A stretch of 53,493 nucleotides of DNA. Origin: an uncultured Bacilli bacterium. GTDB taxonomy: Bacteria; Bacillota_I; Bacilli_A; RF39; UBA660. Location: the NCBI GenBank assembly GCA_944331805.1, contig CALVIS010000003.1:1-53493 (forward strand), written 5' to 3'. The translations under genes were made by a program, and so were the position numbers. Of this stretch, positions 9,956-50,832 are shown one piece after another. Within the stretch, counting starts at the first letter, position 1. Each line of letters starts with the position of its first letter. The notes below the pieces were generated by a model. The model searched no databases. It was given only the letters and a program-made list of their open reading frames with translations, and was not told the DNA's origin.

Positions 9956-10036
9956 ATACTTCTCCTTTATGGCTATTATTCTATCATATGTTCTAGTTAA
10001 TGTATAGTTATTTTTTTGCATTTTCCAAATGTTACC

Positions 10037-15759: not shown

Positions 15760-15771
15760 TTATTACACCTC

Positions 15772-18315: not shown

Positions 18316-18317
18316 AA

Positions 18318-19304
18318 TTAACTATTCACCTCCTCTTTTTCTAATTCTTGATATATGTATTCATTCCATTTATTTAAATTATTTGTAAAAGTTTCTTCAT
18401 CTATAAGAGTATCTATTCCAATCTTTTTTAAAATTAACATTCTATATAACATAACAATTTTAAACATAAATAAAGCTGATTCTTTGCCATTCAAAGTATC
18501 TTTTTTAGTGACAGAATGTGAAAATTTGTTTCTTGTATTAACTAATTTACTTAACAAAGAGTCAATATAATATTTGTTGTTATCATCTAAGTCTTCTTCA
18601 TACTTAAATACTTTAAATCTTGTATATTGAATATAAAATCTTAATTTGTCAATAAAATGTAAGTTTGATACTTTTGTCATGTCATCTTTTAATTTTTCAT
18701 AATCAGAAGCTGGTATGTTCATTACATCTATTGTATTAAGATAATCTTTTATTCTATTTAATTTTAAATTTATAATATCATTTCTACAGTCTTTAAATAA
18801 TACTTCAAATAAACCATCTAACGATTGAAGAACATTTACCATAGTAATTTCAGGATATAGATTACTTTTCATTGTTGAAACATTAAATATCGTAACCGGA
18901 AAATTTGCATTTTTATATATTTTTCTATATTCTTTAAAAGAATTAAAAAAAGTTTGATTATCTATTTCTTGTATATATTGTTCACTTGCTCTAATAAAAC
19001 ATTCTTTTGTCTTATATTGTTCTACAATATTTTTCAATTGGTTTTTATCCATAAATGATGCTTCTAAAATTTCTGGAAAATATCCTAATATTATTTCTAA
19101 ATATGAATAAAAGGTCCAAAATATATTTCTCAACTCTTGATCATCCAAAACACTAGAATTTAAATTGATTATAAATCTCTCATATTTATATTCAAACTTT
19201 ATTTCAAAATTATCAAATGCACAACTGGCATTCTTAAATATTTCTGGCATTATTATATTATTACCATTATTCTTTTTTACAACTGTTGATAGTTTTATTT
19301 CCAT
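18318..19304 (-). CDS. ApeA-like HEPN-domain protein inserted in BREX
   Basis: C-terminal LVNTRNKFSH (RxxxxH), preceded by LQSLDGL and followed by MLILKKIGI, an arrangement typical of ApeA-HEPN. Confidence 0.65.
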   Translation of the reverse strand: MEIKLSTVVKKNNGNNIIMPEIFKNASCAFDNFEIKFEYKYERFIINLNSSVLDDQELRNIFWTFYSYLEIILGYFPEILEASFMDKNQLKNIVEQYKTKECFIRASEQYIQEIDNQTFFNSFKEYRKIYKNANFPVTIFNVSTMKSNLYPEITMVNVLQSLDGLFEVLFKDCRNDIINLKLNRIKDYLNTIDVMNIPASDYEKLKDDMTKVSNLHFIDKLRFYIQYTRFKVFKYEEDLDDNNKYYIDSLLSKLVNTRNKFSHSVTKKDTLNGKESALFMFKIVMLYRMLILKKIGIDTLIDEETFTNNLNKWNEYIYQELEKEEVNS

Positions 19305-19312
19305 ATTTATAC

Positions 19313-22300: not shown

Positions 22301-22996
22301 AGAAATAACTCTGTCTTTTTCAGCCTGATTATAATATTGATATAACCAACCTATTATTTCTACTTGTTTATAATTATCTTCTGGAACTTCATTTATTACT
22401 TTTGTAACAAAACCTGAATCATTCAATAAGTTATCAGGTATTAATATATCAATATAATCAGTAATACCATCAAACACCTGTGGTATTACCATGCCAAGTT
22501 TTTTACAAACTAATAATAAAACATATTTAAATTTTTCATTATCATCTTTTAATTCGGCATATTTTTCTTTCCTAAAATTAATATCTAAATCTGGATTCAT
22601 TAGATTAGTAAACTTTAATATTTCTGGGTCAGGAGTATTATCTTTTGATGATAATACTCTTATACCTAGACTTTGATTATCTCTTGTTAATGGTAATATA
22701 TCATTGATTTCCATATATCTAATAGCAATTATTCTATTAAACCAAGTATAAGCTGCCTCTTCTATTACTTGATCAAGAGATAACTCTACAATCCTTTTAA
22801 TTAAAAGATTACGCTTTGTGTATTCTTCATATGTTAGACTCAATGAGTGTTTTTCATTAGATAAAATATATAAATCACCTTTTTGTTCTATATTAAAGTC
22901 TTCATTAACATAAAAGGTATTTATTTTATTTTCCATTTTTTCCATTAAATCTTTTCTTGATTCAATAGCAAACTTTTTTAATATAGTTTTATCCAT
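19313..22996 (-). CDS. pglX: BREX-1 adenine DNA methyltransferase PglX (BrxX)
   Basis: MDKTILKKFA start, EEAAYTWFNR, TQLFTPDWIV, motif I DPCCGSGH, motif IV NPPY, DWDSFETSWDF, IDLDDGVKVNY end. Confidence 0.95.
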   Translation of the reverse strand: MDKTILKKFAIESRKDLMEKMENKINTFYVNEDFNIEQKGDLYILSNEKHSLSLTYEEYTKRNLLIKRIVELSLDQVIEEAAYTWFNRIIAIRYMEINDILPLTRDNQSLGIRVLSSKDNTPDPEILKFTNLMNPDLDINFRKEKYAELKDDNEKFKYVLLLVCKKLGMVIPQVFDGITDYIDILIPDNLLNDSGFVTKVINEVPEDNYKQVEIIGWLYQYYNQAEKDRVISAKKAYKKNEIPYATQLFTPDWIVKYMVENSLVRYWVEHNGDGALYQSDNLYPSNSLSLSSSITDNWKYFIKENLENKKEKLNPTEITFIDPCCGSGHILAYAFEVFYQIYLQTGYNKNDIPELILKNNLYGLDIDDRAGQLSILSVLLKAREYDRNIFNKDIIRNLHIMSIQESNTISEFTIDNIFEENLKEQAKYLIDNFKNAKEIGSLLILEDKNYSGLIKNINDDITIFGIELREKLLPIIKVSKILSKKYNIAVTNPPYAIKAKLEMKLRNFLDKNYKCFSNDLFTAFIKRMGIFLIRDDSYYSMITPHSWMTLGDLDDIRNDLLENHTIISMAHMGVGAFGTDFGTTAFVISSEKKNDFNSIFIELSPYKASEDKRINFLKAKRYQINQKIFKILPNKAIAYTISKNMLNNFTKELLGKFIITREGMTTGKNDRFLRMWFEIENQKMAIYNNIKNNPKWFPYNKGGVCRKWYGNKEYVVNWEDNGKEIKSFKDEKTGRTRSHNYNGEFIYKDGITWGAFSSIGASFRISEKNTLFDSKGSMAFAYNNDNLLYYLALLNSSVAKKYLEFLSGTRDTKPGHLLNLPFIFEEKFISTVNELVKCNITISKEDWDSFETSWDFKKHPLLEFINSMPELHDSNIQVPIPHLKKIKNNYGEECFIVDELPIKARISDSYDKWEEFTKKQFFTLKRNEEELNKIFIDIYGLQDELTPEEDDKDVTIRKADQVREIKSLISYAVGCMFGRYSLDKEGLIYAGGDFNEIYKKYKKEDGGWAGVSLANYKVLNDNGKEIDLSFEVDNDNVIPITDESYFEDDIVARFKEFISVAYGKETLNENLDFIAETLGQKGTETSEDTIRRYFVNDFFNDHVKIYQKRPIYWLFDSGKKNGFKALIYMHRYNENLVPKIRLDYLHRMQTTYKKMLDDIKYKLTTELSMSDKKDTLKRQANLNSKLQEIKEYDEKIAHIANQRISIDLDDGVKVNYEKFKDILAKIR

Positions 22997-23008
22997 TTAA
23001 ACCTCCCA

Positions 23009-23809
23009 TTATTTTAACAAACTTTGAACAAAAGTTATTAATTCTTTAATTGAAACTGCTAACTCTGCTAATGTTCCAAGCTTAGGTAATACTTCTTGAA
23101 GCGAAGAAATAAAAGCTTTAACTCTTCCTTTTTTAATATCTTTTTTCTTTAATTCTTCCTGTATTCCTTCTGCATTATCAATAATTTCTTGTTTTAGTTC
23201 TTCATCTTCAATATTATCAACCTTTTGTTTAACGTTAGATACCAATCTGTCTAATTCATTATAATTGTTTTGTATAGCGGTAATATTTGCATTTTCTCGC
23301 GCAAGGTTAAGTTGTCCACCATTATTTATTATTACAAATTTTGTTTCTTCATCCATTCCCATTTCTATAAATATCCTTTCATAATTAACATTAATATAAT
23401 TTATAAGAGGCTCTACTACATTATCACAAAAACTTTTTAATTTATCTTGAAATTTGCTAGAAGAAGAATAAGATTTTATATATGCTCTACAATCTATATT
23501 ATTATCAATGATGTATTTTAAAATTTGATAAATATATGCTACTTCTTTTTCTTCCTCTATATAATCTTCAAAAATACAGTCATACTTTGTACATACCTCT
23601 TTAACGTCATCTTCTATTTTAAGTTCATTATACTTGCAAATACAAGAATCTATATATTGCTTTATTACTTCATTGTTATCGATAAAAATAATTAATCTTT
23701 TAAGGTTACCATTAAATACCTGAAAATCACTTGTAAGTGTTCTGCTTGCTATTGTTCTAAATTCTATACTTTCTTTTTTCAATTCTTTTTTATTTATTGG
23801 TTTACTCAA
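23009..23809 (-). CDS. Hypothetical helical protein (~266 aa) inserted in BREX
   Basis: TTG start at 23809 behind GGAGGTG overlapping the upstream stop; helical N-domain, NNGGQLNLA linker, helical C-domain. Confidence 0.7.
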   Translation of the reverse strand: MSKPINKKELKKESIEFRTIASRTLTSDFQVFNGNLKRLIIFIDNNEVIKQYIDSCICKYNELKIEDDVKEVCTKYDCIFEDYIEEEKEVAYIYQILKYIIDNNIDCRAYIKSYSSSSKFQDKLKSFCDNVVEPLINYINVNYERIFIEMGMDEETKFVIINNGGQLNLARENANITAIQNNYNELDRLVSNVKQKVDNIEDEELKQEIIDNAEGIQEELKKKDIKKGRVKAFISSLQEVLPKLGTLAELAVSIKELITFVQSLLK

Positions 23810-24251
23810 AATTAGCACCTCCACATAAAGGACAATAACTTCCTGTAACAATAGATCCAGTTTTTATTTTTGCCATAGTTTTACAACAATCATATTTCAT
23901 TATCTGCATATTTTCTATTCTTGGTTTTATTATACTAACAACTTCCATTTCTGGTTTCTTTCCGACCTTAAAGTTGATAAATTTATTATTTTTTGTTTTT
24001 CTTTCTAATTCTTTTAATGAATTAAACATCATTCTATTTGCTTCATTTTTAGCCATTTTCATACTCATATCCAAAACTTCTTTTGTATAATATTCTTTAC
24101 CATTTAATCCACAATAGGGGCACCATATATTTAATGTTGATTCATCATTTAAATCACTCGCAAGTAATTTAAAAAATTCCCCACAAAGACTACATTGCAA
24201 TAATATAAATCCATCTTTATCACTTTTTATCGATATTTCAAATGTACTCAT
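23802..24251 (-). CDS. Multi-zinc-ribbon protein (TFIIB-type Zn ribbon-like) inserted in BREX
   Basis: CSLC, CPYC, CC and CPLC cysteine clusters; AGGAG RBS right after the brxC stop. Confidence 0.75.
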   Translation of the reverse strand: MSTFEISIKSDKDGFILLQCSLCGEFFKLLASDLNDESTLNIWCPYCGLNGKEYYTKEVLDMSMKMAKNEANRMMFNSLKELERKTKNNKFINFKVGKKPEMEVVSIIKPRIENMQIMKYDCCKTMAKIKTGSIVTGSYCPLCGGANFE

Positions 24252-24262
24252 AACGTTTTCTC

Positions 24263-27200
24263 CTATCTAATAGTTAAACTACTATTCTTTTCAAACTCTT
24301 TTAATAATTTCTCTTTTAGTTCTTCTACATATTTATCAATATCTTCTTTTGAATTAATCTCATAAGAATGATTCATTAAACTATCAGCTCTTATTATTGT
24401 TCTTTTAACTATTTTTTCTTCTACAACTTCTCCTGTTTCATCTATTGCATTTTTCTTACTCTTTTCATATTCTAAATCATTAATAAACTTATCCTCAAGT
24501 TGATTTATTCTCGTTTGTTGAGCAAATATATCTTTCAATTCATTAGATCTTTCTAATGTATCAATAACTTTTTTACAAGTATCAATATATGGCTTAGCAA
24601 AATCTATATCTATTCCTGCATTTTTTACTTCATTCTCTATATATTCAATAGTACCATTTATCTTTTTTATAATAGGCTCTGATTTAACATCATACATATT
24701 ATTTAATATATCTATTAAATCTTTTCTTAATGTTGGTAATTCATGTATTTCACTATATGGCTCTTTTGAAGTAAGAATTGCAACCATTCTATTTACAACA
24801 TTTAAAAGTTCATCAGTTTTATCAGCATAGTCTTTATTATTATCATAAATAGTAATTATCTTCTTTGCTTCATCAAATTGCTCTTTTTGTGCTCCATCAA
24901 AGAATTCTAATACCATTTCTATTTTAGGTGCTAAAGCAATAAGATCTTCTTTACAATTTGACACCTCTTTAAAGAATTCTCCAACATCCCTTATTTTTAA
25001 TAATCTTTCCATTATATTAGTCGCTTCATCTTTTACCTCTTGTCCTGGATACTGATAATTACTACTAGAACTATAATAATATCCAGCTATTCTATTTAAC
25101 TTATTTAAAGTATTTTGAAGACAATTGTTTTTAAAATCCTCAACCATGCCATCTTCATCATCTCTTAAATTCATAACATCAAAAGCACTTCTTGCAACTG
25201 ATTTTAGATCATTTATTAGACTTATATCAATTTTTTGTCTAATTTTAATTATAGTCCTATCATAATATTCTCTTTTTAAAATCTTTGTTAATGTATCTTC
25301 TGAAGTTATATTTTGCACTTCGTTATTATAAATTAAAGATACTACCTCATCTTTTAATAATCTTGTTAACAAATATAATATATCTTCATCTAAAAATCCA
25401 TAAGGTGCAGTACTAAAATCTTGTAATAAAGTTCTTATTGTTATTGGCATACCAAAGGCATTTTTTTCTTCACAATATTCTTTCATTGCATCATAAGCCT
25501 TTTGGTTAACAAATTCTACTTCATTGCCAAGCAAATTCTGCCTATTCTCATGAAATAAATCTTTAATATCTTGTGTACTAAAGTTATGTTTTATATATGA
25601 GAACTTTGTATATATATTATTAACCAATATTTCTAAAGCTTCATTAACTCTTGCCTTAGCTTCTTTAGCATTTATATTTTGTCTATCCCCTGCAATAATA
25701 ATTTCTGCTTCATTTATTTCTTCTTTAATATATTCTTTTATTCTTCCTTTTGTATGATCTGTTTCTCTTTCTTTTGCTCTAATAATATCTACAATTTGTT
25801 GTGTTTGAAGTATTCTACTATTAATTCTTCTAAATTCTTCCACCTGTAAGCAATTTGTTATCTCATCATAGATTAAAGAAGAAATTTCAAGTTTTATAAA
25901 GACATATTTGTTTTCTCTAAAAGACTGCATCAAAATTTCAGTATCACTTTTTCCTGAAAAATTAGTAATAACTTTTATACCAATTTCATACTCTTGTGTA
26001 TATTTAATGGTATCTATGTATTCTGTAAGTGAAAAAATTCTTTTTTTATAAGATAATTTATTATCTACTAATATTTGACTAAAAATTAATTTTCCTAGAT
26101 AATCCGCAACTCTATTTGGTTCAATGGATATTTGTTTTATTTCTCTATTTATCTCTTGTTCTTCATCTGTCAAGAATTTATATTCATCATTATTTCTTTG
26201 AATTAGATTTTGTGATTCTAGCCTTCTTAATGAATCTGAAATGTTCTTTTTTATTGTTATTTTATCATCATTAATATTTGATACATATAACGTTGATAAG
26301 TTATCAACATTAGCAGGTATATCCTTGATGTTTTTAAGCATAAATAACATTTTCAATACTTTAATATCTATATCTTTTAGTTCTCCACTTTTTACCATAT
26401 CAAGAGCATTATTTATTACATTTTTAATCTGATGCTCCAAAAACTGTTCAATGGTATCATAGAAAGCATAAAAAGGAATAAGAGTTCCAACTTCACTATC
26501 TCCAAACCTTTGTGCAGTTTCTTGGAACGCACCTAATAATGATCTTTCACCGCTTGATAAATGCTTCCCTGCATATCCATGCTTTCTAATATCATTAAAC
26601 ACATCCTGTAATAATTTAAATTGATATGGTATAAATGGGTATATTTCTGCAAAATCATCACTATCTTCATATACTTTTTGATAAGTAGCATTTTTAAAAG
26701 TTAATAAATTTCTTATTATAGACTCTTCTTTATCATAAATCATTTTTAAACTTACTTTCGCTTCATCTGTTTTATCAAGTATTCTTTTCTTGATTACTTC
26801 ATCTATATCAGAACTTGATAAAGAAAGCTTTGTATCAAATCTACCTTGTATTTTAGAAAAATCATTACCTTGAACTTTTACAACATCATCTATCGCTTCT
26901 TGTGATGTAACAATTACCCATGCTTTTCCACCACATTCTAATCCTAAATCTTCAACTATTGTTTGGAGATTTAACATTAATCCTCTATCATCTCCGATAT
27001 ATTGTCCAATTTCATCAACTAAGAACACTACATGATGATTATTACCTTTAGATTTAATGTAATCTCTAACTCTTTCTGCATATTTTTCTACTGATAATGT
27101 ATAATTTTTTTCTGTTCTTTCTACTACATTACGAGCTTCTTCTACTGATTTACCAAAAACTTCAGCATAAGAATTAGCAAATTCATCTTCTACAAATTGA

Positions 27201-27790
27201 ATTCCATCTCTCATTTCTTCCCAAGAAGCATTAGCATTATGTTGAAAAGCCTTTTTAAAATCATCATACTTTCCTTGACTAATCATATATCTTTCTATTT
27301 CTGCAACAAAAGGTGTAATAGAAAATCCCATTTTTTCATTGAATACTTTTTCAAATACCTCTAATATCTTGTCTTTAGTTCCATTACTGTTTTCTGTTTT
27401 TGAATCAATATTAAATAATATTACATCTGTTGATATACTGCCCGCTCTTTTGATATCAGCAAGTAACATCTTATCATCTATCTTATCATCAAAATAATCA
27501 ACTGCTGCTTTACCATTAACAATTTTATTTTCTAATAAATAAGATATTATTTTTAAAAAATGAGACTTACCACTACCAAAGAAACCAGAAATCCAAACTC
27601 CCATCTTCTCTGTATTACCATTTATTCCTGCATTATAAGCCTCAAAAAAACTATGAAAGTGCTTTAACAATTCATCTGTTACAACATACTCTTCAAGCTC
27701 TTGACTAATATAACTTTCATCGTCTACTTTAATTACCCCTTGTATTTCTCTTTCAATATCTTTAGCATATATTTTTTTTAAATTATCCAT
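24263..27790 (-). CDS. brxC: BREX P-loop ATPase BrxC
   Basis: GVIKVD, ELEEYVVT, Walker A GFFGSGKSH, Walker B LVDEIGQY, KIQGRF, YPFIPYQ. Confidence 0.95.
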   Translation of the reverse strand: MDNLKKIYAKDIEREIQGVIKVDDESYISQELEEYVVTDELLKHFHSFFEAYNAGINGNTEKMGVWISGFFGSGKSHFLKIISYLLENKIVNGKAAVDYFDDKIDDKMLLADIKRAGSISTDVILFNIDSKTENSNGTKDKILEVFEKVFNEKMGFSITPFVAEIERYMISQGKYDDFKKAFQHNANASWEEMRDGIQFVEDEFANSYAEVFGKSVEEARNVVERTEKNYTLSVEKYAERVRDYIKSKGNNHHVVFLVDEIGQYIGDDRGLMLNLQTIVEDLGLECGGKAWVIVTSQEAIDDVVKVQGNDFSKIQGRFDTKLSLSSSDIDEVIKKRILDKTDEAKVSLKMIYDKEESIIRNLLTFKNATYQKVYEDSDDFAEIYPFIPYQFKLLQDVFNDIRKHGYAGKHLSSGERSLLGAFQETAQRFGDSEVGTLIPFYAFYDTIEQFLEHQIKNVINNALDMVKSGELKDIDIKVLKMLFMLKNIKDIPANVDNLSTLYVSNINDDKITIKKNISDSLRRLESQNLIQRNNDEYKFLTDEEQEINREIKQISIEPNRVADYLGKLIFSQILVDNKLSYKKRIFSLTEYIDTIKYTQEYEIGIKVITNFSGKSDTEILMQSFRENKYVFIKLEISSLIYDEITNCLQVEEFRRINSRILQTQQIVDIIRAKERETDHTKGRIKEYIKEEINEAEIIIAGDRQNINAKEAKARVNEALEILVNNIYTKFSYIKHNFSTQDIKDLFHENRQNLLGNEVEFVNQKAYDAMKEYCEEKNAFGMPITIRTLLQDFSTAPYGFLDEDILYLLTRLLKDEVVSLIYNNEVQNITSEDTLTKILKREYYDRTIIKIRQKIDISLINDLKSVARSAFDVMNLRDDEDGMVEDFKNNCLQNTLNKLNRIAGYYYSSSSNYQYPGQEVKDEATNIMERLLKIRDVGEFFKEVSNCKEDLIALAPKIEMVLEFFDGAQKEQFDEAKKIITIYDNNKDYADKTDELLNVVNRMVAILTSKEPYSEIHELPTLRKDLIDILNNMYDVKSEPIIKKINGTIEYIENEVKNAGIDIDFAKPYIDTCKKVIDTLERSNELKDIFAQQTRINQLEDKFINDLEYEKSKKNAIDETGEVVEEKIVKRTIIRADSLMNHSYEINSKEDIDKYVEELKEKLLKEFEKNSSLTIR

Positions 27791-27805
27791 CTTCTACTCC
27801 TCCTA

Positions 27806-28375
27806 CTATCTTTCAACAAACTGAAATGCTCTATAATAATTATCATTTTCTAATTTGTTAAATAATTTAAAACTTTGTCCATTATAACTACCAGGATAAA
27901 ACATTATTAAAGGATTCTTTGTTATAACACTGTGTAAATTATTTAATATTGTATGGCCCCTCACTATTCCATAACATTTTCCTATACCAGTTATTATAAT
28001 TATTTGATTAGGCTCTACTTCACTTTTAATTTTCTTTACAATTAAATCATTACAAGAACCAATTCCAAGTGTTTTTGAAATAATAGTGTTTAAATATTTA
28101 GCCCCCTTTTTCTTTTCATATTCAAAGCATTTTTCAAGAAAACCTTTTTCTTTAAGAATCTCTATAATAATGTCATATACATCAAACACTTTTATATTTA
28201 ACTTTGCTCTTTTTAATAAGTAATTTTCTAAATATTCTCTTACTATATATTCATCTTCTGGATCATAATCAAAAACGTGAAAATTTATTTCGTTTCCAAG
28301 GCCATTAGATTCAAACAATTCTTTACTACTTAATTTATTTGTTATTTCTTGTAACCTTATATTTATATTTTTCAT
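27806..28375 (-). CDS. brxB: BREX BrxB (DUF1788)
   Basis: GLGNEINFHVFDYDPEDE, HTILNNL, MFYPGSY, DNYYRAF. Confidence 0.92.
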   Translation of the reverse strand: MKNINIRLQEITNKLSSKELFESNGLGNEINFHVFDYDPEDEYIVREYLENYLLKRAKLNIKVFDVYDIIIEILKEKGFLEKCFEYEKKKGAKYLNTIISKTLGIGSCNDLIVKKIKSEVEPNQIIIITGIGKCYGIVRGHTILNNLHSVITKNPLIMFYPGSYNGQSFKLFNKLENDNYYRAFQFVER

Positions 28376-28971
28376 AAAAGACCTCCTATTGCTTTAGCAT
28401 ATTCCATATCTCCTTTTTTATCTAACATACTTATGTATTTTTCCTTTAATAACGGTCTTACTATCTTAAATCTATTCTTTTCTTTAATAACTAACCCAGA
28501 ATCCTGTAATATCCTCATTATTACTTGTTTTAATTTAGCAGCAGTGGATTCTGTACGTTCTTTCAATGTCTTGCTGAGTATACATTTTTCTTCATACCAA
28601 TTATCAATATCAAATTTTTCTATATGCTCTTTTCTCATAAGCAATTTATCTTTATACACTTCAACAATAAAATCCCTTACTAATTTATCTGTTTTCATAA
28701 TAGTGTATAATAATATATATTTACTTGTTTCTATATCTGCATTAACAAACTCATATAACATTTCATTATCCATAACATTAAGCCTTCTAAATATCGGAGA
28801 ATTAACTCGTGTTATACTTTTTGGTGATTTATATTTAATTAAGTTTTCAGCTACATTTCTTCTCTTCAGCTCTTCTGAACTTATTCCATCAAGTAAATAC
28901 TGAGCAAGTATTTTAGTTTCTTTATACAAAAATGGTTCTGCAGTTAACTTTGCACTATAATCTTCCATCAT
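28372..28971 (-). CDS. brxA: BREX BrxA (DUF1819)
   Basis: YSAKLTAEPFLYKETK N-terminus, ESTAAKLKQ; ATG behind GAGGAGG; first gene of the operon. Confidence 0.9.
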   Translation of the reverse strand: MMEDYSAKLTAEPFLYKETKILAQYLLDGISSEELKRRNVAENLIKYKSPKSITRVNSPIFRRLNVMDNEMLYEFVNADIETSKYILLYTIMKTDKLVRDFIVEVYKDKLLMRKEHIEKFDIDNWYEEKCILSKTLKERTESTAAKLKQVIMRILQDSGLVIKEKNRFKIVRPLLKEKYISMLDKKGDMEYAKAIGGLL

Positions 28972-29106
28972 TTCCTCCTCTTTTAAAGAATAATAACTTA
29001 ATAGCATTATATCATATAATATCGCTTTTTCATACTTTTTTTAAGAAAAAATATAAAATATTCGCAAAAAAAGAGAACTTTATCTAAAAAATTCTCACAT
29101 TTATAA

Positions 29107-29943
29107 TCAAAATAACTCTTTCACTATCAAGTTTTCCGAATGTAAATTATTGTTTTTACCTAATAATAAATTCTCATAAAACTTAATTAAATAACTTTTA
29201 TCTTCTTTTATATTTAAATCATTATTAAAGTAATTACTTCTTACTAAAGCATTTCTAAAATATACTGATTTATCTTTAAATAAAGATTTATATACATTAT
29301 ACCCTAAACTAATTAAATACTTTTCTATAAATAAAGCTATTGTTCTAGTATTACCTTCTCTAAAAGGATGAACTTGCCATATACTAGAAGAAAAATCAGT
29401 AATATTTTTAATTACATCTACAATAGACATATCTTTATAATTTTTCTCTTTTTCTAAACGTATATCATATTCTAATGATTCCGTTAAAGTTTTACAATCT
29501 CCATAAGCAACTGAATCATTATTTAAGATAATCTCATGTTTAAAAAAATTAATATTTCTAAACTCCCCTGCAAATTCATAAACATCTTGAAACAAATATT
29601 TATGAATATACTTTAAATAATCTACTGATAACTCAAAATTATCAACACTTAATAACTCTACTATTCTCATGGATACAAAATCACATTCTAATTCATTATA
29701 ATTAATGCTATTTTGTTTTTCTTTTTCTATATAATAATCTTTTAGTTCTTTCTCTACTTCTTCTATTGTTAATTCTCCTAAAATGCTCTTTTCTATAAGC
29801 TCTTCTAAATATTTAGATGGTTCTAAATTATCTACTTCTTGTAAGCCAATAGCCATATCCCATTCTAACTGTTTAAAGTAGCCTTTAGGATCATTTATCA
29901 CGTTATAATCATTAATACTAGAATCCAAATCTTTTTCACTCAT
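29107..29943 (-). CDS. Fic-domain protein with VbhA-like N-terminal extension
   Basis: Fic motif HPFREGNTRT; IHKYLFQDVYEFAGEFR; N-terminal WDMAIGLQEVDNLEPSKYL. Confidence 0.88.
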   Translation of the reverse strand: MSEKDLDSSINDYNVINDPKGYFKQLEWDMAIGLQEVDNLEPSKYLEELIEKSILGELTIEEVEKELKDYYIEKEKQNSINYNELECDFVSMRIVELLSVDNFELSVDYLKYIHKYLFQDVYEFAGEFRNINFFKHEIILNNDSVAYGDCKTLTESLEYDIRLEKEKNYKDMSIVDVIKNITDFSSSIWQVHPFREGNTRTIALFIEKYLISLGYNVYKSLFKDKSVYFRNALVRSNYFNNDLNIKEDKSYLIKFYENLLLGKNNNLHSENLIVKELF

Positions 29944-29964
29944 ACTAACAAACTCTTATATAAA

Positions 29965-30756
29965 TTATTTAACAAAATCCGCCTTAACATTAGCTATCAT
30001 AACTATTAATTTATCTTCTTCTAAATCAGAAAGATCAAAAACATCTTTTGATGCTGCTACCGGTATTATACCTATAGATGTTTTAACTTTTATTAATGTA
30101 AATGGAACTAACTCCTCTCCGATTATAGCATTAACAGATGAAAAGGACACAACTCTACCAATAATAATTGAACTAATATATCCACCAAAAATATCTCCAT
30201 TACCAACAAATTCTTCACTATAGCCATTTACATCTAAATCTAATTCTTTAACTTTTATAGGTTTAATAAATCCTAATGCTTTATTTACTTCCTCCATAGT
30301 ACTAAATATAGATAATATAAAAGGAAATGCTGATATATAAACATCTTTTCTCTTATTAACGATATCCCTATCTTCTATTTTATATCTATTAACTGTCTCT
30401 ATTTGAAAATGAACATTATTATCTACTGTATGAACATTATAATATTCATTAGAATCACTAGACTCTTTAAGCTTTGAATCAAACTCTAAAGTTATTTTAT
30501 TTTCATTAAGTAATTCTAAATCTACATCTAATATTTCATAAGAGTCTCCATCTTTAGATAATTTAGTTGTTATTACTTCTTTTCCAATTATTTCCATATT
30601 ATTTTTATCAAGGATATCTTTTGAGGCAATTATTATTTTTTTATCTTCACTTATAAAAACATTCGTTGAATTATTAAAATCCTTTTTAATAATACCTAAG
30701 AAAATATTATTTTCTTTTTCTTTGTTTTTTACAATTGAATTTAAATGTACTGGCAT
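29965..30756 (-). CDS. Hypothetical protein (~263 aa, beta-rich)
   Basis: Open frame with GGAGGTG RBS before ATG 30756; no recognisable motif. Confidence 0.7.
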   Translation of the reverse strand: MPVHLNSIVKNKEKENNIFLGIIKKDFNNSTNVFISEDKKIIIASKDILDKNNMEIIGKEVITTKLSKDGDSYEILDVDLELLNENKITLEFDSKLKESSDSNEYYNVHTVDNNVHFQIETVNRYKIEDRDIVNKRKDVYISAFPFILSIFSTMEEVNKALGFIKPIKVKELDLDVNGYSEEFVGNGDIFGGYISSIIIGRVVSFSSVNAIIGEELVPFTLIKVKTSIGIIPVAASKDVFDLSDLEEDKLIVMIANVKADFVK

Positions 30757-30839
30757 ACTACACCTCCATGTTTCTATAAGAATAATATAACATAAATATA
30801 ACTTTAACTTCAATCTTAAATAGTAATTAATATCTTAAG

Positions 30840-30948
30840 AAAAAAATCGACTCCTAAGAATCGACTATATCATTAAGTCTATAAGACTATATTCCCATTA
30901 TGGGGCAATAAACCAATGAGTTTTGCACCCAAGTTAGTAATACTTGAT
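30840..30948 (-). ncRNA. Putative ~110-nt structured small RNA
   Basis: Extended -10 TGtTATAAT (30955-30963) and -35 TTGATG (30979-30984); GC-richer body with hairpins; terminator GTCGATTC-TTAG-GAGTCGAT-T tract (30840-30866); no RBS-led ORF seen. Confidence 0.5.
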
Positions 30949-30991
30949 GAATTAATTATAACATATTTATTCAATATACATCAACATTATT

Positions 30992-31162
30992 TTATTTAAT
31001 TCCGTAAATATAAGAATTTTTTTGTACTTGTGGAGTATTTATTTTTAATGATGTAAAATTGGCTTGTGACAAATTTTTTCCATACTTGCCTTTTTTTGCA
31101 TCACTAACGAATGATAGGATACTTTTATTTTTATTTTCTGTTTTTTCAGTATTCTTTTTCAT
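30992..31162 (-). CDS. Unannotated 56-aa basic microprotein (MKKNTEKTENKNKSILSFVSDAKKGKYGKNLSQANFTSLKINTPQVQKNSYIYGIK)
   Basis: AGGAGGT RBS; own promoter TTGCAT-N17-TATAAT (31208-31180); shorter than any ORF in the supplied track. Confidence 0.65.
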   Translation of the reverse strand: MKKNTEKTENKNKSILSFVSDAKKGKYGKNLSQANFTSLKINTPQVQKNSYIYGIK

Positions 31163-31213
31163 ATAGACCTCCTATTATTATTATATTTCATTATTCTTTT
31201 TTATGCAATTATC

Positions 31214-32413
31214 TTAACATATTTTTTTCTTAAATTGACTTTCTATTTGACTTCTAACACCTTGAAGATTTATATTAAACCCACATTCACATTTTAGCTC
31301 GTTGTCTATCGGAAATGGAATTCTACCTTTTTTGCTCATTTCAGCATCAATTTGTTTATTATTAATCAATTTAGCATATAACTTATGAACTTTTCCACAA
31401 TTTGGACATTCTTGATCTAATTCAACATTATGTATATTGTCTGGTATTACTTGTTGTACATTAGATTGAGTATTAGGTTGAGCATTAAAAGAAATAATTT
31501 GATCAGAAGTACACATAATTTTATAAGAATTACTCATGTTTAACATCATTCTACATACCATATTGATTTTATACACAATTTCTCCAATATCTTTATTATT
31601 TTCATCATCTAAATCAACTATTCTCAATCCTAACTCCTCTAAATCTTCTAGTTTTAAGGATCTACCATGAGTTCTCCAAAAATTATGATTACTTAATTTT
31701 TTAGCAATTGATGTTGCTCTAGATTTTCTCATTCTGTCAGTTACTGGTTTGTGCGTTGTTTCTGTGGTTTCCCAATTCTTAAATTTATAATCATTCAACC
31801 ACTTTTTTACTAAATCTTCAGCAAACTTTAATGAGTTTATAACACCATTTAACTCCCCAGGAGTTATTTGTGATAATATTACAACATCTGCTGGATTTAA
31901 TGTACCTGTTTTTTCAGCTTCTTTTTTCTTTTGATTCATCCAATCAATATAATCATATGCAGATACTACATTACCATGCATTACTATTTGTGCATCAATA
32001 GGTCCCAAACTTCCTGTTTGGGTCATTAAAATTTCATCACCTGACATAGCCATAATAGTACCAGCACTTTTTGCCTCTCCACAAATAACGAAAGATACTT
32101 TGTCATAGTTTTTTCTAGTTAGTTTTACTATTTCCTCAGCTGTTGTTCCACTTCCACCAGGAGTTTCGATATATATGTCTAAATTCTGGCTAGTATTAGT
32201 TTCATTTTTCTCTATTAAATCTTTTATAAAGTAATAATCTTTTTGTTCTAATGAACTTGGTAAATTTGGATTAAATGATGAAACATATAAAAACATATAT
32301 GTATTTCTTTTTGAGTTATAAAGTTTTATTAATCTTTTTAATTCTTTTTCAAATTCATTATATCCCCAATGCTCAAGATTTATTTTTTTCATGTATTCAC
32401 TCAAAACTGTCAT
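31214..32413 (-). CDS. SDH-family Clp-fold serine protease with C-terminal zinc ribbon
   Basis: ETPGGSG, AKSAGT (catalytic Ser), LGPIDAQ, HGR; C-terminal CPNC...CECG. Confidence 0.85.
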   Translation of the reverse strand: MTVLSEYMKKINLEHWGYNEFEKELKRLIKLYNSKRNTYMFLYVSSFNPNLPSSLEQKDYYFIKDLIEKNETNTSQNLDIYIETPGGSGTTAEEIVKLTRKNYDKVSFVICGEAKSAGTIMAMSGDEILMTQTGSLGPIDAQIVMHGNVVSAYDYIDWMNQKKKEAEKTGTLNPADVVILSQITPGELNGVINSLKFAEDLVKKWLNDYKFKNWETTETTHKPVTDRMRKSRATSIAKKLSNHNFWRTHGRSLKLEDLEELGLRIVDLDDENNKDIGEIVYKINMVCRMMLNMSNSYKIMCTSDQIISFNAQPNTQSNVQQVIPDNIHNVELDQECPNCGKVHKLYAKLINNKQIDAEMSKKGRIPFPIDNELKCECGFNINLQGVRSQIESQFKKKIC

Positions 32414-32460
32414 AATTTATCACCTCTTGTTCTAATATTATATACCTTTTATTATTTTTT

Positions 32461-33360
32461 TCAATATTTACTTACTATCTTATTGAATATTGGTACATTA
32501 CCTTTATAACTCTTTGGAGAGATAGGACTAGGATGATAAATAGGTAATATCTTATAACCATTTATTTCGTATATGTTACCAACCACTTCTGAAAATTTAT
32601 TAAATTTAAAATTAAGTAAATTTCTAGTTGGAAATTCTCCTAAGGTAATAACTAATTTAGGATTTAATATTCTTAATTGTTCTAACATTATACTTTTACA
32701 ATTACTAGAGCAAGTTTTTAAATTTTTTCTTTCATGTGGATAACACTTAACTGATTCTAAAAATGTAGTTTCAAAAATATCTCTATCAATAATATCAAAT
32801 AGTTTTTGCAATACAACACCACTAGGTAACACTTTATCATTTACATCAGTCCATAGTTTATGACTTTTTCTCCAACCATTATTTGCAGGTGCTTCGCCAA
32901 CTAAAACTATGTCATTATCTTTTCCAAGAAATACTGTTGCAGCATTAGGAAATTTATCAACTAATTCACTACAAGATTTACATGAATATACTTTTTCATC
33001 TACTTGTTTTAGTAATTCTTTTACTAATCTTGCTTTTAATATTTTATATCTATTTTTTGTATCTTCTGTTAATATATTTTTTCTATCTATAATTTGATAA
33101 TCTTTATAATCCATTTCATGATTAAACTGACTTGAAGTTAAATCTATAATTTTGTCCTCTATTAAATTAAAATAATGACTAATTCCATCAACATAAATTT
33201 TACAAATAACTCCACCAAAATAATCATTAATGATTAGAGATGTTATTGCACACATACCAAAGCATTTATTATTATCATTCCAATCATCTTGAACTTTAGG
33301 ATAACATAAATCTTTTGAGTAACATTCTAATAATGCTTTTTGTATATTTTCAATATTCAC
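32461..33360 (-). CDS. YunG-like domain fused to uracil-DNA glycosylase (family 4-like)
   Basis: N-terminal GMCAITSL...HYFN...DLT; C-terminal CKSC, VGEAP, VKCYP, C, HPSP; GTG start behind GAGGTG. Confidence 0.8.
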   Translation of the reverse strand: MNIENIQKALLECYSKDLCYPKVQDDWNDNNKCFGMCAITSLIINDYFGGVICKIYVDGISHYFNLIEDKIIDLTSSQFNHEMDYKDYQIIDRKNILTEDTKNRYKILKARLVKELLKQVDEKVYSCKSCSELVDKFPNAATVFLGKDNDIVLVGEAPANNGWRKSHKLWTDVNDKVLPSGVVLQKLFDIIDRDIFETTFLESVKCYPHERKNLKTCSSNCKSIMLEQLRILNPKLVITLGEFPTRNLLNFKFNKFSEVVGNIYEINGYKILPIYHPSPISPKSYKGNVPIFNKIVSKY

Positions 33361-33413
33361 AATAACACCTCGTTTCATTAAGTTTTAACTATAAATATTA
33401 TATCAAATAAAAT

Positions 33414-33968
33414 TTAGCGTGTCTTGAATTTTAAATTGTTTTTTTGCATTTCTAAATGCCATTTATATTCTTCCAATTCTTTTAAATAATCTCTTTTAAA
33501 ATAATTTTCATATAGCCATTTAACACCTTCTTCTTTAACGCATATAACATCTTCTTCTTCAAAGGTTATAGGATAAGGAAAAACTTTCCTCATCCTATGA
33601 AGTGCTACATGAATAACACTTACACTTTTATCAAATTTATATGGTAGAAATCTTAAAGAAGTAGATACATATTTATTTCTTTTATGATCTATTCCTAACT
33701 CATTTTCTAAACCAAAAATTTTTTCTTTATAAAACTCAATTTCAGAAGTTAAGTAATGTACTTCTTTATTGAAATAAACTTTATTTAACCACTCAACACA
33801 TTCCTTTTTTATATACATTTTTGATTTATTATCTTTATCTCTTTCAATCCATAAAAAATAATCATATTTGTGTCTTCGTTTTATATTTCTTAATACTCTT
33901 CCAAATTGTTTAGTTGTTAATGAAAACATTTCTTGAATATCTTTTCTTTCTATCCATTCTTGATTCAT
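33414..33968 (-). CDS. Putative DNA-binding protein with two tandem repeats
   Basis: HTH-like ERKDIQEMFSLTTKQFGR; internal repeat IKKECVEWLNKVYF / VKEEGVKWLYENYF; AAAGGAG RBS. Confidence 0.6.
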   Translation of the reverse strand: MNQEWIERKDIQEMFSLTTKQFGRVLRNIKRRHKYDYFLWIERDKDNKSKMYIKKECVEWLNKVYFNKEVHYLTSEIEFYKEKIFGLENELGIDHKRNKYVSTSLRFLPYKFDKSVSVIHVALHRMRKVFPYPITFEEEDVICVKEEGVKWLYENYFKRDYLKELEEYKWHLEMQKNNLKFKTR

Positions 33969-34026
33969 ACACATCTCCTTTCAAAATAATAGGGAACGGG
34001 TAACGTAATATAGAAATTCAATATAT

Positions 34027-34081
34027 CAAGCATGGTGTATACACACCCGTCCACTTGTTAGGGAATTCTCCCTAAGACCCC
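34027..34081 (-). other. oriT-like inverted-repeat element
   Basis: GC-rich patch; minus strand TTAGGGA-GAAT-TCCCTAA hairpin, CAAG, then GGTGT-GTAT-ACACC hairpin abutting ATGCTTG (similar to MOBP-type nic sequences). Confidence 0.5.
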
Positions 34082-34086
34082 AATAA

Positions 34087-34293
34087 TTAGTCTCCGACAG
34101 TTTTATTTTTTTCTATATATTTCTCACTAACTTTATTAGATTTTTCAATCATTTCTTTCACTTCTTTTTCATAGTTCTTATTATTAATTAATGCTTCAGA
34201 AAGCAAAGAATATGGTATATCCTTTGCATTTTCTTTAAAATACTCTAACAATTGTGGCACAACTATTTCAAAGAAATAATTTATAAAATTCAC
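34087..34293 (-). CDS. Small hypothetical protein (~65 aa)
   Basis: Open frame with an RBS-like GAAGGTG that overlaps the annotated GTG, so the start is uncertain. Confidence 0.5.
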   Translation of the reverse strand: MNFINYFFEIVVPQLLEYFKENAKDIPYSLLSEALINNKNYEKEVKEMIEKSNKVSEKYIEKNKTVGD

Positions 34294-34314
34294 CTTCTTT
34301 CAAAATTTAGGCAC

Positions 34315-34340
34315 AAAAAAAGAACACATTTCTGTGTTCA
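34315..34340 (-). terminator. Terminator ending the recombinase cargo operon
   Basis: GAACACA-GAAA-TGTGTTC followed by T tract. Confidence 0.7.
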
Positions 34341-34362
34341 ATTAAATAAATTTTCAATATTT

Positions 34363-34767
34363 TTAGAATGTATAAGTTTCTAAAACTTCTCCTTCTTCAT
34401 CATAAATTATTGCATCTGCATTAGCCATATACAATACTTGAAATTCTGGATTATCAAGTGTATATCCTGCTTCTAATGCCCAATCAAATTCATCAATAAC
34501 AGCTTGTTTAACTTTCATATTTTGACTATCATCTATCAATTCACAATTAATTCTTATCCATTTTTCATCATCATACGCTACTATACAAACATTATTATTT
34601 TTTTCAATTTGTTTAGATACATTTTTGTGTTTATTAGTAATAACATATATCTTATTATCAACCATAATTGGATCTCCAAATGGTCTACAACTTGGTTTTC
34701 CATCATTAATTGTAGATACATAATTTACTTGTGTGTTTTCTTTTAAAAATTTATAAGTTTCATTCAT
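34363..34767 (-). CDS. Pyridoxamine 5'-phosphate oxidase-like FMN-binding split-barrel protein
   Basis: STINDGKPSCRPFG, TNKHKNVSKQIEKNNNVCI, WIRI motifs. Confidence 0.8.
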   Translation of the reverse strand: MNETYKFLKENTQVNYVSTINDGKPSCRPFGDPIMVDNKIYVITNKHKNVSKQIEKNNNVCIVAYDDEKWIRINCELIDDSQNMKVKQAVIDEFDWALEAGYTLDNPEFQVLYMANADAIIYDEEGEVLETYTF

Positions 34768-34791
34768 TTTTTATATTTCCTTTCATTTAAA

Positions 34792-35265
34792 TTATAATTT
34801 ATTTACTATCTTTTTTATATCACCACTAATAATTTTCCAATCATCAATAGTCTCAAATCCTAATCTCTTATACCAACAATATGGGAATCCATTTTCATCT
34901 TCATAAGTATGAGCTTCTAATGTAGTAGCGTCATATTTATCAATAGCATATTCAAATAATTTTTTAAATAACATTTTGGCAATTCCTTTTTGTTGATATT
35001 CTTTACAAACAAAAGTTTCACCATCTTCTAAATGCATACCATTCCACCAAGGTTTTAAACAAGTCATAATTACACCAACTGGAATTTCATTATCATAAGC
35101 AATAAAAAATAAATCAGGTGCTTGATTATAAAAGTATTTAAATAATTTTATTGCAGATTCTTTTGTCCATTTTTCTTCTAGAACTGAATTATTGTAATAA
35201 TTAGAATATTCTTCTGCAATTATTTCTAAATCTTTTTCTTGTTTTAGATTACTAATTTCTATCAT
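34792..35265 (-). CDS. GNAT acetyltransferase (aminoglycoside AAC(6')-like cannot be excluded)
   Basis: Acetyl-CoA motif FVCKEYQQKGIA, WYKRLGF; EKWT and KPWWNG. Confidence 0.8.
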   Translation of the reverse strand: MIEISNLKQEKDLEIIAEEYSNYYNNSVLEEKWTKESAIKLFKYFYNQAPDLFFIAYDNEIPVGVIMTCLKPWWNGMHLEDGETFVCKEYQQKGIAKMLFKKLFEYAIDKYDATTLEAHTYEDENGFPYCWYKRLGFETIDDWKIISGDIKKIVNKL

Positions 35266-35280
35266 TTTATTTTGTCCTTT

Positions 35281-36102
35281 CTAATTTAATTCTATTATTT
35301 CTAAATCATCAGGTATTAAAATATTATTAGAATAATACTGTTTACCTTCGTTTAAATATAATTCCTTTCTATTATTTAGATGTGTATCTTCAGTATGAAA
35401 TAATATTAAGTTTTTTATATTAAAATCTTTAAAATTTTCACATACTGATTTTACAGTAGAATGATGTTTTTCATAAGGTTTAAAAATATCTTGTTCACTA
35501 TCTAAACAAAAGGCTTCGTGCATTACGTAATCACAGTTTTTAATTTTATCATAAATTTCTGGGTTACAAGTTTCATCACCAAGGAAAACAAGTTTTTTAT
35601 TATCGTCTAATTCTGTTTCAAATCCATATAATTTATTTCCTCTGGCTTTTGCATCAAAAAAAGTATAATCCTTGCCAGCAATATTTTTCGTTTCATTATC
35701 ATTTAAAATAACAATATTTAAATATTTAGTAATTAAATCGACATATAAATTAGGAAATAAATTAGGATAAATGTTCCTTATTGAATTTGCTACTTCATCA
35801 TTACAATATATATTTAAAGACCCTTCATATTTTCCAGAACGTATCATCCCAGCTAATCTTTTTAAAATCCAAAATAACCCAAGTATATGATCAGTATGAC
35901 AATGAGAGATAAATATATCATGAATTTGACCAAGATTTATATTTAGCTTTTGTAAATTTTGAACAATATGAGCGCTCCCTCCTGTATCAATTAGAAAATA
36001 CTTATCATCATTTTGCATTAGAAAACATGTATTATAGCAATCAAATACAAATCCATGTCCTGTTCCAATCATTATTAATTTTTGCAAAAAAATCATCTCC
36101 AT
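35281..36102 (-). CDS. Metallo-beta-lactamase fold hydrolase (RNase Z-like)
   Basis: IGTG, LIDTG, SHCHTDH (HxHxDH), LGDE, HEAFC, HHST, FHTED. Confidence 0.85.
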   Translation of the reverse strand: MEMIFLQKLIMIGTGHGFVFDCYNTCFLMQNDDKYFLIDTGGSAHIVQNLQKLNINLGQIHDIFISHCHTDHILGLFWILKRLAGMIRSGKYEGSLNIYCNDEVANSIRNIYPNLFPNLYVDLITKYLNIVILNDNETKNIAGKDYTFFDAKARGNKLYGFETELDDNKKLVFLGDETCNPEIYDKIKNCDYVMHEAFCLDSEQDIFKPYEKHHSTVKSVCENFKDFNIKNLILFHTEDTHLNNRKELYLNEGKQYYSNNILIPDDLEIIELN

Positions 36103-36125
36103 TTCACTTAATATTTTACCATATT

Positions 36126-37865
<1,740 letters not shown>

Positions 37866-37897
37866 TCATCTCTCCTTTTCTATATTTTTTAAACGAC

Positions 37898-38010
37898 AAA
37901 AAAACACAAGAGAATTTCCCTTGTGTAAGAACTTCAAAAACTACTCAATATACGACTTATCTAGAATTGTCGTATATTACCATAATACCACATTTTTTTA
38001 GGACATGCAA
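37898..38010 (-). promoter_or_regulatory. Recombinase promoter with operator-like palindrome and leader terminator
   Basis: TTGCAT-N17-TATTAT with TG extension (38010-37982); 10-bp perfect inverted repeat AATATACGAC/GTCGTATATT (37947-37978); terminator ACACAAGGGAA-A-TTCTCTTGTGT-T tract (37898-37926) before the RBS. Confidence 0.6.
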
Positions 38011-38089
38011 CGGCACGATTTTGAAAAATAGATAGTAAAAATACCATTTTACCCTTATAAACAAAGGGAAAAATAAAATTTAAATTTTT

Positions 38090-38383
38090 TTAATTTTTTT
38101 CTAAAAACCCATTAACTATGTTTGTTAGTTCTGATATGGTAACAACATCAGATAACTCTTCATTATATAGATTTGTATCATCATCATAACAAAGTAAAAC
38201 TAATGTATCTATACCGTTACTAATAATAATTTTATGTGGTTCTTTTAATCCTAAATTAGAATTATTAAAGATAATATTCTTTCCTGCAATATATTCTATG
38301 TTTAGTTTAGTTATATCTTTAATTCTTAGTATCTTATTTTTTACGCACAAAGGAAATTCTAAAATTTCTATGGACACATTCAT
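38090..38383 (-). CDS. Hypothetical protein (97 aa)
   Basis: Open frame with AGGTGGTGA RBS-like sequence, first gene after the tRNA terminator. Confidence 0.65.
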   Translation of the reverse strand: MNVSIEILEFPLCVKNKILRIKDITKLNIEYIAGKNIIFNNSNLGLKEPHKIIISNGIDTLVLLCYDDDTNLYNEELSDVVTISELTNIVNGFLEKN

Positions 38384-38410
38384 TTTATAATCTCACCACC
38401 TTTGCTAAAG

Positions 38411-38445
38411 AAAAAAGTCCATAATACCAAGTATTACGAACTTTT
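38411..38445 (-). terminator. tRNA-His terminator
   Basis: AAAAGTTCGTAATAC-TTG-GTATTATGGACTTTT hairpin with T tail. Confidence 0.7.
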
Positions 38446-38483
38446 ACTTATTTAACACACAAAGGTGTGCGTAAATTTCAATA

Positions 38484-38560
38484 TGGGGCGGTATAAGGGA
38501 ATCGAACCCTTGCATACTGGTGCCACAAACCAGCGTGTTAACCACTTCACCAATACCGCC
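38484..38560 (-). tRNA. tRNA-His (GTG)
   Basis: Reverse complement GGCGGTATTGGTGAAGTGGTTAACACGCTGGTTTGTGGCACCAGTATGCAAGGGTTCGATTCCCTTATACCGCCCCA: cloverleaf, GTG anticodon, TTCGA loop, G-1, encoded CCA. Confidence 0.96.
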
Positions 38561-47161: not shown

Positions 47162-47171
47162 GTATTTATAT

Positions 47172-50826: not shown

Positions 50827-50832
50827 AAATGT

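Follow-up and report, generated by a model that had tools for sequence, protein, structure and literature searches.

The locus described here raises the question of what a serine protease of the ClpP fold, carrying an additional zinc ribbon, does beside a gene of only 56 codons, and of how many components make up the unit to which both belong. It lies in a stretch of 53,493 nucleotides from an uncultured Bacilli bacterium of the RF39 group (assembly GCA_944331805.1, contig CALVIS010000003.1, positions 1 to 53,493), referred to below as the window. A first-pass annotation of this DNA had proposed a three-part module comprising the protease, a small open reading frame (ORF) and a putative small RNA (sRNA), acting in a defence island. 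From the present analysis, the protease and the 56-aa ORF are a self-contained, horizontally mobile two-gene accessory cassette of patchy distribution, to which the sRNA does not belong. As to its function, the chances appear about even that the pair is a toxin-antitoxin-like or abortive-infection module, in which a latent protease is restrained by a microprotein acting as inhibitor or pseudo-substrate.

All genes in the cassette region are on the minus strand, and its features are the following.

31214..32413, minus strand: protease ORF, 399 aa, a predicted soluble serine protease of the SDH type with a ClpP/SppA fold
32066..32068, minus strand: codon of Ser116, the predicted nucleophile, in the motif GEAKSAGT
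31217..31429, minus strand: C-terminal zinc-ribbon domain (residues 329-399), modelled as beta strands with pLDDT ~90
32437..32464, minus strand: promoter-like TTGAAA-16-TATAAT upstream of the protease, with 11/12 consensus matches, the best in the region
31163..31213, minus strand: intergenic spacer with TTGCAT (31208-31203), 17 nt, TATAAT (31185-31180) and the ribosome-binding site (RBS) AGGAGG (31173-31168)
30992..31162, minus strand: 56-aa microprotein ORF, the conserved partner of the protease

Pairing of the protease and the microprotein

A weak tblastn comparison of the 56-aa peptide with the loci of protease relatives gave matches immediately downstream of the protease gene in one locus after another. 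Across 84 related loci (L001-L084; protease identity 34-61%), a homologous same-strand ORF of 53-77 aa (median 60) lies behind the protease in 83, starting between -26 and +86 nt (median 13) from the protease stop codon. In the single exception, the locus DNA ends 146 nt after the protease. The arrangement is also present in all 20 usable viral contigs from IMG/VR; 22 such contigs carrying the protease were fetched, and L093, in which the protease ORF is not intact, and L098, which has no DNA beyond the gene, were left out. A copy on a Leptospira plasmid is annotated as a 'peptidase' followed by a 61-aa hypothetical protein. The small ORF, whose lack of conservation had been named beforehand as a refuting result, is accordingly conserved and nearly always co-occurs with the protease. 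Pairwise identities among the proteases and among the microproteins are correlated (r=0.856, a value reached in 0/999 permutations), which indicates that the two genes are co-inherited as a unit.

The converse search, of genomes with 16 canonical microproteins, yielded 29 loci. The protease is directly upstream in 22 of these (gap 23-73 nt) and is absent from the other seven, which lie mostly amid toxin-antitoxin or restriction genes. A ribbon-type protease with room behind it but lacking the microprotein was not seen in any of the 83 genomic and 20 viral loci. Because orphan microproteins occur and orphan ribbon-type proteases were not seen, the asymmetry fits the protease as the dangerous component and the microprotein as its antidote. 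The surroundings of the orphan microproteins (L111, L125, L128, L131, L133, L134 and L135) comprise HicAB/MazF-like, restriction and unknown genes, and L125 and L135 have two upstream ORFs in common, one of 134-208 aa and one of 148 aa.

The protease

In silico analysis shows that the protease possesses a core with the ClpP/SppA fold, a helical middle domain, a disordered linker and the C-terminal zinc ribbon. The first-pass assignment to the SDH-family serine proteases agrees with the Pfam profile SDH_protease (PF01972), which matches residues 73-177 at 53.4 bits against a gathering cutoff of 31.3, although the match spans only positions 89-189 of the 286 in the profile; NfeD1b_N and CLP_protease match as well. 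On the NCBIfam model for SDH family Clp fold serine proteinases (NF047768), the score of 62.8 bits lies below the equivalog cutoff of 250 and the protein is therefore placed in a related but distinct subfamily. Its best match among the PHROGs is phrog_11747 (2e-52), a family of unknown function.

An AlphaFold model made from 25 homologues (pLDDT 87.9, pTM 0.72) superposes over residues ~17-310 on ClpP (Z 13.6), SppA (Z 11.9) and the 1510-N domain of PH1510 (Z 10.6). The top Foldseek match of this model is SppA (E 1.8e-5), in a structure with C-termini bound in its active sites, while by sequence the closest of the solved structures is PH1510 (E 5.6e-6). The AKSAGT motif, noticed at first reading, lies within GEAKSAGT and contains Ser116, which is invariant in 25/25 aligned sequences and aligns with the AASAGT serine motif of PH1510. 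Both the ClpP/crotonase fold and the xSAGT serine by which the group is recognised are thus found in this protein, from model superposition and alignment respectively. Lys162, positioned 46 residues past Ser116, is invariant, as are His249 and Asp140, and all three are candidates for the general base; the alignment with PH1510 stops at profile position 136, short of Lys162. Core motifs shared with the SDH family are the xSAGT serine, SLGPID(A/P)Q, KFKxW and HGR.

The additional ribbon behind a Q/N-rich linker, also described in the first-pass annotation, is well founded. The linker is variable and poorly predicted (pLDDT <50 at 313-322), and the four cysteines of the ribbon (C336-x2-C339...C375-x-C377) are invariant in 25/25 aligned homologues. 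The usual hydropathy threshold for a membrane segment is ~1.6. The highest 19-residue Kyte-Doolittle value in the protease is 1.08, indicating no membrane segment, and since a hydrophobic segment is lacking the protein should be soluble, unlike SppA and PH1510. The promoter-like site at 32437..32464 is a consensus match alone; a contig from an RNA library (X3 record 20, 32108-32942) spans it, coming from the upstream gene.

Such a fold could also belong to a housekeeping quality-control protease working with an adaptor, or to the remnant of a phage head-maturation protease with its scaffold. Weak ClpP-related matches point to the latter (NF045542 at 41.8 bits, phrog_1684 at 2.9e-10), but the curated cutoff of NF045542 is 120 bits, the best PHROG is instead phrog_11747, and no capsid genes were present among the neighbours examined. 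A housekeeping role sits poorly with the distribution, as the protease was not found in the 40 relatives searched (24 of the genus of the window and 16 further). Both forms of this explanation are considered very improbable.

The microprotein

The microprotein family follows a recognisable pattern, consisting of a basic start, a helix with [LI]L.F[LV]..T+.GKY, the motif ..S[LI].Y.R, an acidic stretch and an end motif such as YYYS[VIL][RSK], and the window copy conforms to it as SILSFVSDAKKGKYG...SYIYGIK. In the most distant protease clade the partner looks different, ending in ..YTTT or ..TFA. The model has a helix at residues 2-23 with the remainder as coil, and the best-conserved part is the N-terminal helix (F18, G25, R38). 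Neither a hydrophobic nor a toxin-like segment is present (maximum 19-residue Kyte-Doolittle hydropathy -0.37). No family match was obtained in Pfam, NCBIfam, PADLOC or the PHROGs, the best cosine in a search of the ESM Atlas was 0.77, which is below a useful level, and no DNA-binding domain was found in any of nine microproteins scanned with Pfam and NCBIfam. A profile built from 73 microproteins matches 144 database proteins at E<=1e-3, and every one of these that has a name is called 'hypothetical protein'.

These properties bear on a second explanation, in which the microprotein is a substrate or pro-peptide of the protease and its cleavage, for example near the conserved tail, would free a peptide with an activity of its own, for example as a toxin, as a signal or as an anti-sigma-like regulator. 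A parallel is offered by the known activation of partner proteins by defence proteases. The long disordered C-terminal part with its conserved end motif would suit a cleavage site, strict pairing and co-divergence fit a dedicated substrate as well as an inhibitor, and the nearest solved relative, 1510-N, is reported to cleave the C-terminal region of its operon partner (PMC3795559). However, lone proteases would be expected if the enzyme were harmless without its substrate, and none was seen among the ribbon-type loci, the microprotein is without a hydrophobic or toxin-like segment, and conservation is strongest in the N-terminal helix and not in a short core peptide. A substrate role is therefore regarded as unlikely, though it is the main rival of the inhibitor reading.

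The presence of a real ORF with a strong RBS, as first read from the sequence, is upheld, the ORF being conserved across the related loci and the RBS in the closest of them. In the four closest loci (the window, L005, L006 and L011, with proteases 53-61% identical), the TTG, the 17-nt spacer and ATATAAT are invariant, the RBS is kept, and 40-50 nt separate the protease stop from the microprotein start. Because the promoter-like element and the RBS are conserved there, the microprotein of this clade can probably be made independently of the protease, whereas the gap of ~13 nt in most other clades suggests coupled expression. The promoter of its own that had been proposed for the ORF (TTGCAT-N17-TATAAT) is upheld as far as this conservation goes, but hexamer pairs of this kind turn up here, where the DNA is AT-rich, no more often than chance predicts (18 found, 16.9 expected).

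Contigs from RNA libraries show the presence of these sequences in those libraries; they are not proof of transcription and give no ends, strand or expression ranking. Such contigs match much of the protease gene with zero mismatches (31405-32542 and others), and X4 record 23 covers 30899-31158, including the microprotein. Several bins of 29000-34000 are uncovered and the depth is 45.9 for X4 (microprotein) against ~3-6 for the protease contigs, neither of which is interpreted here. With regard to the end of the microprotein, the last residue is R/K in 39 sequences and S in 21, with charge-matched columns in the protease (column 56, E/D against S/N; column 292, D/E against S/T/A), a covariation in which kinship is a confounder and which serves only as a lead.

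Relatives without the ribbon

SDH proteases of ~290 aa that lack the ribbon were represented by 80 fetched loci (L146-L225), 75 of them usable. Behind the protease, 48 of the 75 have an ORF of 63-80 aa with the motif EY.LP..DTIGR (e.g. L164:3882-4091), which has no Pfam match and constitutes a different sequence family from the window microprotein, while eight have other small ORFs, some of them clearly related. As relatives without the ribbon also have small partners, the ribbon does not define the pairing.

Escherichia coli has a version consisting of a 300-aa ribbon-less protease and a 56-aa ORF (L144:3842-4915) in a lambdoid element, immediately behind a cI-like repressor and on the same strand. 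It is present in 20/5426 complete genomes when any match is counted, with 17 carrying a copy that covers >=80%, and is annotated only as 'SDH family Clp fold serine proteinase' and 'hypothetical protein'. The small partner has no Pfam match. The cI-N region of lambdoid prophages is described as a hotspot that includes rexAB and bstA (PMC8585504). When 50,697 phage records were searched, tblastn with a canonical microprotein gave no match at E<=0.1 and the E. coli protease gave none at 1e-20, so there is no evidence in these records of phage-borne orphan 'anti-protease' copies.

Distribution and genomic neighbourhood

The full-length protease architecture gave 3321 matches at E<=1e-3 among 6593 candidates (the best 120 having 48-61% identity), with 2738 representatives at 50% identity. 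Its carriers belong to many phyla, and six of the 80 kept loci are archaeal. Up to four ORFs on each side of 85 loci were compared, and the resulting 477 ORFs fell into 445 clusters with no other conserved gene. The only recurrent neighbour is a tyrosine integrase (6 loci), which in the three closest relatives (L005, L006 and L011) is convergent and just behind the small ORF.

Of the 145 ORFs lying immediately beside the pair, 25 (in 24 loci) have PADLOC matches at E<=1e-10, including restriction-modification types I, II, IIG and III, AbiEii, AbiU/MzaE, HmaC, ThsB, PglX and several candidate systems. Pfam adds PIN, RadC, NB-ARC, recombinases and transposases. In PADLOC-DB v2.0.0 itself, neither the protease nor the microprotein has a match at E<=0.01, and none was found for the E. 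coli, Methylosinus or Leptospira versions.

This neighbourhood could also be that of an addiction or stabilisation module, or of selfish mobile cargo with no anti-phage role. A variant would be a switch controlling lysogeny or the element, where the protease cleaves a regulator of the element and the microprotein tunes it. The pair is found at the ends of integrative elements beside integrases or recombinases, in viral contigs and behind a prophage repressor, and toxin-antitoxin genes are frequent beside orphan copies, all of which favour such a role. Many loci, however, are in a plain chromosomal setting with no mobile gene next door, and the commonest recognisable neighbours are restriction-modification and abortive-infection genes. 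This explanation, which we think quite unlikely, overlaps with the favoured one and differs from it only in the benefit conferred.

Proposed role of the pair

In the favoured toxin-antitoxin-like or abortive-infection module, the microprotein would bind the protease and keep it latent as an inhibitor or pseudo-substrate, its disordered tail, with the conserved end motif of aromatic and small residues, occupying the substrate groove. Were the microprotein lost or displaced, the protease could then harm the cell or an invading phage. We infer this binding and inhibition, and the harm done by the freed protease, from the strict pairing, the disordered tail with its conserved end, the separate promoter, the asymmetry of orphan microproteins, and the precedent of SppA and PH1510; the trigger and any role of the ribbon would be further suppositions.

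Several observations weigh against this. In 19/75 of the ribbon-less loci there is no ORF of >=45 aa behind the protease, so that a protease of this fold on its own need not be lethal. Decay of former cassettes could explain the orphan microprotein genes equally well. Two features set the pair apart from classical type II toxin-antitoxin systems, namely the position of the protease gene ahead of its partner and the absence of a DNA-binding domain from the microprotein. The microprotein was originally described as basic, which holds for the window copy (net charges of +5 and +4 in its two halves) but not for the family (medians of +2 and -3), so that the window copy is atypically basic. With regard to context, about four of the 25 PADLOC neighbour matches look spurious (Der GTPase, FtsK, dCMP deaminase, MBL), approximately three quarters of the loci lack a defence gene directly beside the pair, and housekeeping genes (IMPDH, tRNA synthetases, EF-Tu, ATP synthase) make up many of the neighbours. 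The association with defence genes is a raw count with no background rate, and as such is suggestive only. Of the earlier suggestion of a protease with a dedicated small partner in a defence setting, the conserved genetic unit is strongly supported, and a defensive or toxin-antitoxin-like role is plausible from context.

A wider proposal is possible, though rather doubtful. The bacterial and archaeal family, with its thousands of members, may form an undescribed class of protease-based immunity or toxin-antitoxin systems, where infection cues, sensed perhaps through the ribbon or through loss of a labile microprotein, would release the protease against host or phage proteins. The ribbon-less pairs, including those in the position of rexAB, would then be variations of it.

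Insertion at tRNA-His and the putative sRNA

The cassette lies at the far end of an integrative element, with the following features.

30907..38481, minus strand: integrative element of ~7.6 kb, from congener comparison and junction alignment
36126-37862, within the element: large serine recombinase (phrog_95 integrase match, 1.8e-111)
38484..38559, minus strand: tRNA-His(GTG), the integration target
30899..30906 and 38482-38489: 8-bp core repeat, GCCCCATA on the minus strand, the second copy being in the 3' end of tRNA-His
30907..30991, minus strand: last 85 nt of the inserted element, comprising the 3' untranslated end of the cassette and the attachment (att) arm
30984-30955, minus strand: promoter-like TTGATG-18-TATAAT, inside these last 85 nt
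30837..30898, minus strand: native tRNA-His trailer with an intrinsic terminator, outside the module
30866-30845, minus strand: terminator-like hairpin (2 found, 0.4 expected)

When the genus was searched with 30500-31000, homology ended at 30906 in 15/51 congeners, and the ~70 nt at 30837-30906 recurred in many. In congeners without the cassette, BLAST and junction alignment show this stretch directly following the 3' end of tRNA-His(GTG). The alignment places the insertion (30907-38481) between two copies of the 8-bp core in the 3' end of tRNA-His. It is not marked by composition, the guanine-plus-cytosine content being flat (0.19-0.28) across the element and its flanks. Besides the cassette and the recombinase, the cargo of the element includes a YunG-UDG family-4 fusion, an MBL-fold hydrolase with a weak Apyc1-like match, a GNAT protein, a PNPOx-like protein and three unknowns.

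The putative sRNA, tried as a third component, is made up of the last 85 nt of the element and the tRNA-His trailer with its terminator. A three-part module of protease, microprotein and dedicated sRNA could draw on the promoter-like TTGATG-18-TATAAT and the terminator, which flank ~100 nt with a marginal fold z-score of -2.18, and on RNA-library contigs that cover 30899-30991. The hairpin at 30866-30845, however, is the native terminator of the tRNA-His trailer, as the stretch containing it follows tRNA-His in congeners without the cassette. Promoter-like hits are as frequent as chance predicts, the region is single copy in the genome, and Rfam gave no match at E<=1 over 30700-31300. In the closest homologous cassettes 15-75 nt separate the small ORF from the convergent integrase gene, leaving no room for such an RNA. 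Contigs X2 and X4, from metatranscriptomes of two studies, are exact from the small ORF to 30900/30899 and then continue into unrelated sequence, which means that the same cassette sits in another flank elsewhere. The three-part module is thus largely refuted and can be given very little credence. Of the three elements originally expected to co-occur, the protease and the small ORF do so, and the third proves to be an integration junction joined to a tRNA terminator.

Other genes of the window

The element adjoins a defence island at 2049-29943, which has the following main features.

2049-10021: Wadjet (DUF2397, DUF2398, SbcC-like, JetD-like)
13729-29007: complete type 1 BREX (BrxA, B, C, PglX, PglZ, BrxL)
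12452-13722, 18318-19304 and 23009-24251: unknown ORFs within the island

GmrSD is also present, and the Fic protein of the island matches PADLOC PDC-S72 at 5e-77. The Fic gene lies ~1 kb beyond the cassette, and on a Methylosinus plasmid (L145:3920-6364) a Fic family gene likewise comes after an SDH-type protease and its 76-aa ORF, a likeness that may be a coincidence. Between the tRNA-His trailer and the Fic gene lies an ORF of ~263-282 aa (29965-30813, with a probable true start near 30756), which has no family match and is found with 94-95% DNA identity in three congeners, adjoining tRNA-His. Elsewhere in the window there are two T-box leaders on the minus strand (46955-47169 and 50616-50828; Rfam 110.5 and 103.1 bits) upstream of long ORFs, both of them ordinary.

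Novelty and comparison with known systems

Literature searches and family scans turned up neither a name nor a family nor a publication dealing with the microprotein or the pair, and a description may sit in subscription journals or supplements. The literature search likewise gave no paper on the function of SDH-family Clp-fold proteases. The terms Clp, serine protease, peptidase, zinc ribbon and SDH are all absent from the main text of a preprint on defence systems and language models (10.1101/2025.01.08.631966).

Members of the SDH branch of the ClpP fold are numerous and have no known function, and the ribbon-bearing ones are now seen to be essentially always coupled to a microprotein that is missing from family libraries. 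What was annotated as a hypothetical peptidase becomes a two-component system that is genetically well defined, and its E. coli cousin, at a classic exclusion locus, is tractable. If the inhibitor model is true, a ClpP-fold protease would join the known toxin-antitoxin and abortive-infection effectors, and a protease of the self-compartmentalising type would be under natural control by a microprotein. The case also illustrates that a conserved gene of 56 codons is missed by many gene callers and by first-pass ORF tracks.

Within the SDH family (PF01972, NF047768, PHROG 11747), the window protease has the same core motifs and ClpP fold, and differs by an extra linker and four-cysteine ribbon of ~100 aa. 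Beyond this family, the closest fold is that of SppA. In Bacillus subtilis, SppI, encoded in the same operon, uses its C-terminal domain to inhibit SppA, and SppA is harmful when over-expressed alone (PMC7568657). The window pair is similarly a protease and a partner gene in one operon. The two systems differ, however, in that SppA and SppI are core-genome membrane proteins concerned with peptide resistance, whereas the window pair is soluble by hydropathy, mobile and patchy. Compared with SppI, the window microprotein has no similarity to any Pfam family.

PH1510 (1510-N, NfeD/STOPP) also acts on an operon partner, cutting the C-terminal region of the stomatin PH1511 with a Ser97-Lys138 dyad (PMC3795559). 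PH1510 is bound to the membrane and has a large SPFH protein as partner, in contrast to the predicted soluble window protease and its tiny partner. Of the features that characterise the S49/NfeD proteases, an operon-encoded partner is found throughout the genomic and viral loci, apart from the locus with truncated DNA, and membrane anchoring is not indicated by the hydropathy of either window protein.

We know of no described toxin-antitoxin pair in which the toxin is a ClpP-fold protease, and literature searches were likewise negative. In its organisation the window pair resembles type II toxin-antitoxin and abortive-infection cassettes, being likewise a compact mobile unit of two adjacent, co-oriented and co-inherited genes, found in a defence-island or prophage context. 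The likeness to type II toxin-antitoxin systems extends to the small disordered partner, to its own promoter in one clade, and to the occurrence of the small gene as an orphan where no orphan protease was seen.

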